Below the pieces are notes generated by a model that made no database searches, was not told the DNA's origin, and saw only the letters and a list, made by a program, of their open reading frames with translations. Shown here piece by piece: positions 2,688 to 64,000 of a stretch of 64,000 bases of DNA (the stretch's first letter is position 1; each line of letters begins with the position of its first letter). The position numbers and the translations under genes were made by a program. Source of the DNA: Plasmodiophora brassicae. Taxonomy: Eukaryota. Location: contig CP145416.1 of the NCBI GenBank assembly GCA_036867785.1, positions 310,001 through 374,000 of the forward strand. Reading direction: 5' to 3'.

Positions 2688-3703
2688 ATGCCGCCGCCGC
2701 CGTTTGCCGCATCGGGCGGCTTCTCCATCCAGTGCAAGACGATGCGGCACCCGAACGAGGATCGGTTCACGATCGTCGAGGCCCTGTCGACTGCAGATGC
2801 GTCGGTCGGGTTCTTTGCCGTCTACGACGGGCACTGCGGCGACGCCTGCAGTGCGTTCCTGGCCGACACGCTTCACAATCGCGTGCGCGAATCGCCCGCG
2901 TTCACCTCCGGCGACTACAAGCAGGCGCTGGCCGACGGCCTGCTCAGCACCGAGCGAACTTACCACATGCAAGTCATCGAAAACGAGAAAGCCGGCGTGG
3001 TTGACGAGAACCCGGACGACGATGGACCGAAGCGTAACTCGTCTATCATGGGACCATTGCTGGGCGTCTCTGACGGGTTCGCGCGCAGAGTCATCCGGGT
3101 CCTGCGTCGTGGCCACGATCCGCACTGGACCCCGATTGTACATCGCAAACCTAGGCGACTGTCGTGCCATCTGCTCCGTCAACAATATGTCGAAGATGCT
3201 GACACGGGACCATAAGGCGACGGATCCGCAGGAGAAGGTACGGCTGTGAAGCGCACGTGGGTCCCAGATGGGCGGCCGCTGACGGCTACGGCAGGCTCGC
3301 GTCGTCGAGGCCGGCGGGTTCGTCAGGTCCAATCGCATGTTTGGCCTGATGTCGGTGACGCGATCGATTGGCGACTTCGAGTACAAGGACGGCAGCACAA
3401 CGGGGACCCTGATCTCGACTCCCGATCTATTCGAGGTACAACCTACCCGTCCGGCCTGCTAGCCCACGGTTGCTTACGCGCGGGTGCGGCCAGGAGGAGA
3501 TAACACCTGGGCATCAGTGCTTGATCATGGCATGCGACGGGCTGTGGGACGTGGTCGACAACGCCCTCGCAGTCGAGACCGCCGTCGATGGGCTTCGTGC
3601 TGGGCAGTCCGCCTCGGAAACGGCCAGAGAACTCGCCAAACTCGCTGTCCAGCGCGGCAGCAACGACGATATCACCGTTGTAGTCGTCCCCCTTAATATA
3701 TAA
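2688..3703 (+). CDS. Protein phosphatase 2C (PPM family), multi-exon
   Basis: Motifs NEDR, FFAVYDGHCG, LYIANLGDCRA, TRDHKA, VTRSIGD, LIMACDGLWDV and GSNDDITVVVV. Confidence 0.93.
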
Positions 3704-61543: not shown

Positions 61544-63009
61544 CTATTTTCTTCCTGGACGCGCTCGCTGTGCAGATGGGAACTTAAGCGGAGCGGTCAA
61601 CGACACCATCGCCTGGTCGTCTCCGGACGGCTTCCTCTTGATCGTGGCCCCGACTTGTTCGAAGTGCGTCAGCAGCAGACTGGGTGCGATCTTCAGATCG
61701 GACTGAAGCGCGTCCACGGCCCGCTTCGGCAGGGAGAAGTCGGAAACGGTTAGCGCCAGGACGCAGATGTAACAGAGAAGAGAGACGCGGTTCGAGCTGG
61801 TCGTGGAGAAAACCACGCGACCGTCCTCGAGGGTTCGCTCCTACGGTGCCAGTCAAATATGCAGGCCGGGTAGAGCACGCGCTTCGTACGTACCTGCCTA
61901 AACCGGGACAGCAGGCTCTCGGCAACAATCTCGGAGCATCCCAGCATCGCCGCCAGGTCGGACGCAGACGAGATACGCGACCTCCCTTGTATATAAAGGT
62001 CAATCAGGTATCCAAGGTACACCTGGACACCAAGTTAGGATGCCGGTTGGAAACAGGGGACCGTGGGCCATACAAGAACGCCCAGCTTGCTGCGGACGAC
62101 TTCACGCCCTGGATTAGCCGCCTTGAGCGCCGCCAGACGGTCAAGCACGAACGGAAACATCAAATCGTCTTCAAGCCGCCCAGACTTGAACAGTTTCGCA
62201 ATGGGCTTCGTGTCGATACTGCATCGTTGTTCCGTAGTGATGACTACAGCGTACACACTCTTAGCATCGGGTGCATTGATAGCAACCGCCGCACGTACTG
62301 TCATCCAGGGGGTAGATGTCACGTGTATCCAGCGCGTTGGCATCGTACGGAGGTAGGAATTCTCGCACCGCGTCTGCCGATGGCACATCTGCAACAACGC
62401 CGTTAAGGGGGGACCGTCCATCAAAACGATGGCAACAGCGCGTACTCCCAATGGACGATTTTCCCGCGATCAGGGCTTGCTGAATGGCACCTTGAGCGGT
62501 AGCCTCTTCAACATCGATTCGGTTCATGTCCGCCGACTTCATGGCGCGTTTCCGTTTCTTGCTGCCGAAGTCGTCGATCAGAAGGCGTTTCGTCTCAGCG
62601 TAGGTCGACCCGGAGCGATCGTGTTCAAGCATGGAATCCCTGGGTTCGCGCTGCATCGAGAACAAGTTGATGCCCTGCGACGACAGGGTGACGGTGCCCG
62701 CATCGGGATCGAAAATTCCGATCGCAAACCGGGTGGCTTGCGGGTCCTCCTTTCGGACAGAGCCTCGATAGTTGAAGGCGCAATCACCTGAACTTTCCAC
62801 AATCGTTTCCTTCGCATCACCCGATGTGGACAATGAGAAACGCATCGACTTTGACACAACGTCAGCAGGGATGCCCGATGGGAACGTCACTGAACCGAAT
62901 TAGATGCCATTATTATAATACACCAGATATGTTTCGGTCGCTTACATAACTGCGGGTGCAGCGCCGCCTGATCACAGTTGTTGGAGGTAAGCTTGACGCG
63001 GGTCGACAT
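61544..63009 (-). CDS. RPA49: RNA polymerase I subunit RPA49/PAF53, multi-exon
   Basis: FAIGIFDP, LIDDFGSKKRKRA, FLPPYDANA...DIYPLDD, LLCYICVLAL and SLTAPLKFP. Confidence 0.85.
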
Positions 63010-63456
63010 CGCGAAAAGCCGCCCAGTTCTTCCTGAGGCAGCGGAAGATGGTATCAGCGAACGCTGAAGTCGTTGCGCTCAGCCGTGGCCACGGACTCCG
63101 CAGCGGACTCCGCGCGACGGTCCAGCAGGTCAAGGCACCGAGGACGTGCATAACATGTGACTACATACCCATACCTACCTGTAGAGAAGAACGCATTGCA
63201 GATGAATCTGTCTGCCGTGCCTGATGCGCTGTTGCATGTTTGAACTGCCAACGATCGTGTCGGCGGTGGACAAGGCTAGGTAAGTCCGCATTGCGAAATG
63301 GTCGGCGATGATACCGCGTGACGTTCGTTGGCGAACTGTTGCGTTCACGTAATTCTGTGCGGTTCGAGCACTGGAACCACTGGCGCCTGTGGCATGGCAT
63401 GGCCTGCGGCCGCTCGCGGATGACAAGTCGGCGCGATTTTGCAGGTTGGCGGATCG

Positions 63457-64000
63457 ATGGGCGACCGGACGTCATCGGCGTTGTACCACGTCGTCTGTGA
63501 TACGCCCGATGAATTCGACGCGCGGTTGCGGGTCGCGCAAGACGAGGCGCGACGTCGAGGCGTGCCATTGTTCATCCTGGCGTTCGGCCAGCGGGATCCT
63601 GACACCGGCCGATCGTGGTGCCCTGATGTACGCTGCGTGCCGTTTCCGCCACGTTGTGGACTGTTCTAACGACAGACAGTGCCATGCTGCGTACCCGGTC
63701 ATTATCGGCGCGATGGAGGCGCTTGCCCCATCGGCGTGCCTGCTGGAGATAACGGTGGAGCGAGCGGCGTACAAAGGCAACCCCGCGTACGCCTACCGGC
63801 GGCATAGTGCCTTGCAGCTGAAGGCGATCCCTCAACTGTATCGAATCCAGGACGGCGACGCGCACCCCTGGCTGGAGACCCTTGTGGAGAACGATTGCCT
63901 GGATGCCGGCCGCGTCGAGAAGTTCGTGCTGCTCAGCCCTCGAATCGATCTGGATGCGTACGATACCGTCCTGCTCGATTGCGATGGCGTGTTGTGGACC
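63457..64000 (+). CDS. TRP14/TXNDC17-like thioredoxin fused to a HAD phosphatase (PGP/pNPPase type); truncated by window end
   Basis: GRSWCPD|C (intron 63628-63679)...YRRH..LQLKAIPQL...LVENDC, continuing in frame to YDTVLLDCDGVLWT. Confidence 0.8.

Follow-up and report, generated by a model that had tools for sequence, protein, structure and literature searches.

Does the gene that crosses the end of this window, a stretch of 64,000 nucleotides of Plasmodiophora brassicae DNA, encode a TRP14-type thioredoxin and a HAD phosphatase in a single polypeptide and, if it does, does one half act on the other? The initial annotation, made from the letters of the window, had read such a fusion across a short intron and had proposed a phosphatase carrying its own reductase module.

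Gene structure and transcripts

The start ATG of the fusion gene lies at 63457, and the end of the window falls within the gene. Read on into the adjoining DNA of the same genome (G000:C8), the gene continues through two further introns to a stop codon, and its four exons encode 424 aa (Table 1). Intron 1 reads GTACG...TTCTAAC...ACAG, with the branch-like TTCTAAC at 63664-63670, and interrupts the WCPDC active site between WCPD and C. It had been predicted exactly: two AGs lie 4 nt apart in the intron, and the joint found in all four runs skips precisely 52 nt, leaving the frame intact. The first AG was rejected as acceptor, its use being absent from the contigs. From 63680 onwards exon 2 reads as the initial annotation had given it, in frame and without a stop. 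Since the linker is situated within this exon, the domain fusion is made by no splice joint and is independent of any splice call.

Table 1. Features of the fusion gene; window numbering is extended beyond 64000 where needed.
Feature	Window position	Position on G000:C8	Strand	Remarks
Exon 1	63457..63627		+	Codons 1-57, N-terminal half of the TRP14/TXNDC17 domain, last residues W-C-P-D; covered by spliced contigs
Intron 1	63628..63679		+	52 nt, phase 0; GT..AG joint in 4/4 runs
Exon 2, first part	63680..63931		+	Codons 58-141: second active-site Cys, R97, P108, TRP14 C-terminal helix
Linker	63932..63949		+	Codons 142-147, within exon 2
HAD-IIA (PGP) domain start	63950..64000		+	Motif I D157-C158-D159 at 63977-63985
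Exon 2, whole	63680-64054	end 374054	+	
Intron 2		374055-374111 (L001:2556-2612)	+	57 nt
Exon 3	64112-64345	374112-374345	+	Motif II, S190
Intron 3		374346-374404	+	59 nt
Exon 4	64405-64899	374405-374899	+	K350, D376, D381, stop

Transcript evidence came from the contigs of four runs from four studies placed on the locus; the RNA nature of these runs is a guess, and the GT..AG joints are the evidence used. All three introns are present as such joints in each of the four runs. Transcripts joining both domains were found as single spliced contigs that carry all four exons in two of the four runs, X8 (record 17) and X11 (record 9), which belong to two studies. In X5, a single contig spans the TRP14 part plus motif I; X1 covers the locus with overlapping contig pieces. 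Contigs run across the domain boundary rather than ending between the domains, the outcome that had been named as telling against the fusion. Intron 2 is unspliced in contigs of X1 and X5, in which introns 1 and 3 are without cover, and this looks like specific retention of intron 2. Its retention would end the frame at 200 aa and leave TRP14 whole and the phosphatase a dead stub; such a message would give a 200-aa product or be a target of NMD.

Several side observations concern the same region. The donor of intron 2, GTGTGT, looks weaker, and the intron lacks CTAAC. Two extra frame-shifting GT..AG joints within coding exons (L001:2288-2351 and 3001-3055) occur in X1 alone, and contig depth, which cannot rank gene parts, is apparently higher across the HAD exons in X1 and X5. 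In each of these two runs a single contig spans window positions 62946-63457, from the minus-strand A49-like gene into the fusion gene, and the two divergent genes may have overlapping 5' regions. Nine upstream ATGs, each followed by a short frame, fall within 63128-63456.

The fusion gene is flanked by housekeeping genes unrelated to it, namely a divergent RNA polymerase I A49-like gene upstream and a convergent phosphomannomutase gene downstream. The 90% cluster of the public record of the 424-aa protein (P0001) has four members, two of them named and both from P. brassicae; SPQ97921.1 is entered in UniRef as 'Thioredoxin domain-containing protein' and CEO97625.1 is the hypothetical protein PBRA_000970. 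SPQ97921.1 represents a second allele that is also fused and differs at 8 of 424 residues, none of them catalytic. Altogether, the same fused model is found in three annotated sequences. P0005 and P0097 were rejected as separate evidence, being unspliced ORF calls from the fusion locus itself.

Two complete domains in one chain

Residues about 8-141 form a complete TRP14 domain, which scores 54.3 bits against PF06110 (curated cut-off 23.1). After splicing, its active site is W54-C55-P56-D57-C58, the WCPDC motif defined for TRP14 in the available text of PMC11217419, and R97 and P108 in exon 2 are the family-invariant residues. Sequence comparison matched this half to four solved TRP14 entries and a mouse NMR entry. 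Its model, with pLDDT mostly above 90, superimposes on 1wou (human TRP14), 7xq3, 7xpw and 1v9w with TM values of 0.80-0.82 of the target, the value for 1wou being 0.80, and the assignment of WCPDC to TXNDC17/TRP14 is thus borne out by both profile and fold. Folding from the single sequence was poor (pLDDT 44.8). Two mixed TRP14 and PGP alignments for the whole protein were dropped because their TRP14 rows were misaligned (5-17% identity), and in the second model the HAD half has low confidence. The domain shares the active site, the invariant Arg and Pro, the length and the fold of TRP14/TXNDC17/Clot (PF06110; PDB 1wou, 7xq3, 7xpw). However, a typical TRP14 is a free protein of ~14 kDa, whereas here a 280-aa phosphatase stands in frame behind it. 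The domain belongs to the TRP14 family, but the whole protein is not a typical TRP14. Enzymes of this family act on cystine and persulfides, leave insulin untouched and are themselves reduced by TrxR.

The remainder of the chain, residues about 148-424, is a complete HAD-IIA phosphatase of the eukaryotic PGP/PDXP type. It scores 239.6 bits against TIGR01452 (cut-off 201.95) and 169.8 against TIGR01460 (cut-off 100.15), so that the reading of DCDGVLW as HAD-IIA motif I is upheld. None of the downstream motifs has been lost: D157 and D159 (I), S190 (II), K350 (III), and G375-D376 with D381 (IV) are all intact, and a C2a cap lies between motifs II and III. The alignment extends across 145-423. 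Comparison with mouse PGP gave an E value of 1.7e-42, and the scores of 149.0 bits to mouse PGP and 148.9 to human PDXP are equal and do not tell the PGP type, with phosphoglycolate, glycerol-3-P or 4-phosphoerythronate as substrate, from the PLP type. Among clusters of at least 50 members in the ESM Atlas, PGP/HAD-IIA clusters alone were matched (0.78-0.79). This half resembles PGP/AUM/G3PP, yeast Pho13 and chronophin/PDXP (TIGR01452; 7po7, 4bkm, 2cfr) in its HAD-IIA fold, C2a cap and motifs I-IV, yet the N-terminal leader of PGP is replaced here by a thioredoxin domain, and motif IV reads GDNL, with Arg in 53 of the 59 other PGPs. The public record, P0001, carries PF06110, PF13344, PF00702 and PF13242. 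As both domains score above curated cut-offs, the matches are not due to chance.

The closest relatives of the two halves are separate entries. P0010, a 141-aa protein of Spongospora subterranea, shows 46% identity to residues 5-127 and is sister to the TRP14 half with support of 99/96, in a tree of 25 rows from which 10 partial rows were left out and whose bootstrap had not settled; its tail beyond the E127 column is atypical. P0035, of 294 aa, shares 57% identity with residues 138-424 and is sister to the HAD half (100/99, with 36 of 61 rows used). Its sequence starts without a Met, and Met7 falls opposite F139, at the junction. Together, the two tile P0001 with a gap of ~10 residues, which would fit either a single fused gene split between two gene calls or separate genes from before the fusion. 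Standalone TRP14s end at a median of 16 residues past the E127 column, at about residue 143, and the HAD match begins at 145-152, so that there is hardly any linker.

Distribution of the architecture

Within the genome, PF06110 and P0010 match the fusion locus alone in profile and sequence searches, and TIGR01452 and P0035 match it together with one distant gene on C6. The latter (L006, G000:C6:1295490-1296308, minus strand) is a second HAD-IIA gene, NagD-like by appearance and 26% identical to the PGP domain. As far as searched, the fusion is the sole TRP14 and the sole PGP-type gene found in the genome; these single-copy counts are lower bounds, as the genome was searched exon by exon.

Elsewhere, the combination was not seen again. 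A HMMER scan with exon 2 gave 68 matches, of which 21, mostly the longer ones, were checked against Pfam along with P0001; among those checked, both domains occur solely in P0001 and in an unspliced fragment of its locus. When proteins of 280-2000 aa were searched with a TRP14 profile, 18 matches were obtained among 8000 candidates scored, with HAD in P0001 alone. Both halves were matched by 5 of the 111 proteins compared, all of them from the fusion gene or its alleles. Of 333 metagenome loci related to PGP, the best 80 were scored for TRP14, and none had a match nearby, whereas the control locus did; many contigs in this set are short, and it contains no close relative (highest identity 45%). 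A word-index search with residues 8-142 recovered the protein itself only, among 378 candidates, and is a weak search that missed the TRP14 proteins P0006, P0007, P0008 and P0027 within its length range. The initial annotation had allowed that the architecture might prove common and characterised; no other TRP14 and HAD protein was found. The fusion gene is real, expressed and rare, and its uniqueness lies beyond the reach of these searches.

TRP14 domains do occur with other partners. Fourteen of the 18 long TRP14 proteins have a non-thioredoxin partner, of eight kinds: acireductone dioxygenase (four clusters), arginyl-tRNA transferase (three), MLH1 (two), and one each of PF02540, PF02115, PF01704, PF00814 and HAD. 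The four Pfam families we take to be NAD synthetase, RhoGDI, UDP-glucose pyrophosphorylase and a TsaD-like protein, respectively. Some of these other fusions may be merged gene models; the variety of partners indicates that the TRP14 domain tolerates fusion to unrelated proteins. The acireductone dioxygenase proteins (P0075, P0079, P0083, P0087) likewise join TRP14 to an unrelated housekeeping enzyme. Unlike the present protein, they have TRP14 at the C-terminus and recur in four divergent clusters, with 34-53% mutual identity and WCPDC in all, whereas TRP14-PGP occurs in one. A narrow literature search found no paper on this recurrent fusion, which connects the salvage of methionine with the reduction of cystine and seems more conserved than TRP14-PGP. 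Among the other proteins seen, P0073, P0074, P0006, P0007, P0008 and P0027 comprise tandem TRP14 repeats of two to three copies and a PX-TRP14 protein, and one tandem set sits behind a PF00795+PF02540 enzyme in Platysulcus. P0009, a repeat protein, was rejected as a relative.

No paper on a TRP14-PGP fusion was found in the literature on TRP14/Clot/DUF953, PGP, P. brassicae, Spongospora and PBRA_000970, searched by titles and abstract openings and including few subscription papers. The supplements of three genome papers, PMC4471660, PMC4815078 (text files) and PMC6823432, hold no DUF953/PF06110 entry, and those of the first two (text files for PMC4815078) hold nothing on the fusion gene. The supplement of PMC6823432 has one row labelled just phosphoglycolate phosphatase / HAD, at most a candidate entry for the fusion gene. 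The fusion had not been recognised as described, and the searchable literature agrees, with the protein itself already in databases. It is apparently an undescribed architecture, verified here, built from two well-known families.

Relation between the two halves

The cysteines of the phosphatase half were compared with those of mouse PGP. According to the available text of PMC13220862, mouse PGP is reversibly inhibited via three cysteines, Cys35, Cys104 and Cys243, the last two of which form a disulfide, and its Cys297 drives oligomerisation. These positions were placed via alignment to 7po7 and counted by hand. Cys35 corresponds to C158 of the fusion protein, between the two catalytic aspartates. 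The Cys104-Cys243 pair is not kept, its positions being A222 and L358, with C218 four residues before the Cys104 position; the best-described redox switch of PGP is therefore missing. Cys297 falls beyond the aligned stretch, which ends at 290 (406 in the fusion); there is no Cys at 372-418, and the nearest, C419, is absent from P0035. Hence, of the four mouse redox cysteines, only one has a clear equivalent in the fusion, and this one, C158, is present in 59 of 59 other aligned PGPs, standalone ones included, in a set mostly chosen by that motif and not a neutral sample. C158 therefore does not distinguish the fusion from unfused enzymes. The HAD half has six cysteines, compared with a mean of 4.8 (range 1-11) in other PGPs. 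Three are common to the fusion and P0035, namely C333 (in 0 of 59 other PGPs), C218 (8 of 59) and C371 (5 of 59), and could mark lineage-specific redox sites.

On the side of the reductase, human TRP14 reactivates the oxidised phosphatase PTP1B and is rate-limiting in cystine reduction (PMC11217419, available text), and it strips cysteinyl, persulfide and nitrosyl adducts (same source and the accessible part of PMC11763069). Because C158 matches Cys35 and TRP14 can reactivate PTP1B, coupling of the domains is chemically plausible. The genome has a low-Mr thioredoxin reductase with CATC on contig C13 (L096), and no high-Mr selenoprotein TrxR was recognised among six PF02852 matches or the TIGR01438 matches in the genome. 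Other flavoproteins were noted in passing: L091 (G000:C2) and L092 (G000:C12) are glutathione-reductase-like by appearance, and L093 (G000:C4, around 653345-653668, minus strand) and L094 (G000:C14:337376-338796, plus strand) are flavoprotein disulfide reductase-like, the latter without the second Cys of the redox CxxxxC. We take L093 and L094 to resemble bacterial soluble pyridine nucleotide transhydrogenase, which would be unusual in a eukaryote.

We regard as somewhat probable a single cytosolic protein with two housekeeping activities whose halves work largely independently. To judge from their families, the C-terminal half would be a Mg-dependent metabolite-repair phosphatase of the PGP/Pho13 type that clears inhibitory phosphorylated by-products arising in central carbon metabolism, and the N-terminal half a TRP14 that reduces cystine together with cysteinylated, persulfidated and nitrosylated thiols of other proteins, probably with electrons from the low-Mr thioredoxin reductase. 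The fusion most likely arose, we infer, when two adjacent genes on the same strand were joined, the TRP14 end running almost directly into the PGP start, and it would persist because neither function has a second copy. Independence of the halves is suggested by the absence of the mouse disulfide pair and by the tolerance of TRP14 for unrelated partners.

It is highly improbable that the fusion is an artefact, whether two genes merged in annotation or a fused message whose product is unmade or cut. Retention of intron 2 in half of the runs and the inability of contigs to reveal transcript starts lend this idea something, yet the two domains meet within a single exon uninterrupted by a stop, and the full-length spliced contigs and the three annotated sequences agree on the fused model. 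A PGP-only protein from an internal ATG was rejected: the chain contains no Met between residues 70 and 168, and M169 comes after motif I, so that a separate active PGP cannot start there. At the RNA level, the artefact is largely refuted. A self-repairing or redox-gated phosphatase is rather unlikely as the main explanation. In it, the tethered TRP14 would reduce oxidised, persulfidated or cysteinylated Cys of PGP, most likely C158, in the same chain or across a dimer, and so keep or switch the phosphatase on under oxidative stress. The equivalence of C158 with mouse Cys35, the reactivation and adduct-stripping activities of TRP14, the pull-down of Arabidopsis PGLP1 with NTRC (PMC6812714, available text) and the three cysteines shared with P0035 are consistent with it. 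However, three of the four mouse redox cysteines lack a clear counterpart, C158 occurs in unfused PGPs with TRP14 nowhere near in the metagenome loci scored, the cysteine count is ordinary, the fusion did not recur in other lineages within the searches made, and the main text of PMC11217419 is silent on PGP. Known chains that pair a catalytic with a thioredoxin-fold domain offer a further comparison. MsrAB-thioredoxin (PilB) and plant APS reductase are enzymes with a built-in thioredoxin-fold recycling domain, and NTRC is similarly built. There, the partner needs thiol reduction in every cycle, whereas a HAD phosphatase, with its aspartate nucleophile, needs none, so that any coupling in the fusion would be repair or regulation.

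Coupling might instead operate at the level of the pathway, with both activities in one chain serving one damage-control circuit and neither acting directly on the other: PGP would protect glycolytic and PPP flux and thereby NADPH, which TRP14 would spend on cysteine supply and thiol cleaning. We consider this quite unlikely. PGP does guard both fluxes, and pools of cystine and glutathione change when it is lost (PMC13220862, available text); TRP14 limits cystine reduction, as noted above, and the four acireductone dioxygenase clusters indicate that metabolic pairings of TRP14 can be conserved. Yet this connection is a general one, is drawn from mammalian cells and needs no covalent join, and the TRP14-PGP pairing was not seen to recur in the searches made.

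The fusion places the only TRP14 and the only PGP found in this genome on one chain, and database names refer to just one of the halves. It offers a cheap test of a link between the two proteins: PGP of mammals undergoes reversible oxidation, few protein substrates of TRP14 are known, and our literature search found no paper connecting mammalian PGP to TRP14. It is unlikely that the protein is a self-reactivating HAD phosphatase, repaired at C158 or at the lineage-specific C218, C333 or C371; the fusion would in that case be a Rosetta-stone pointer to PGP as a natural TRP14 substrate in further eukaryotes, and it might be plasmodiophorid-wide. If the halves are coupled, the fusion would predict a TRP14-PGP link in animals; if they are not, it would serve as a lineage marker and a further case of TRP14 riding on an unrelated enzyme.
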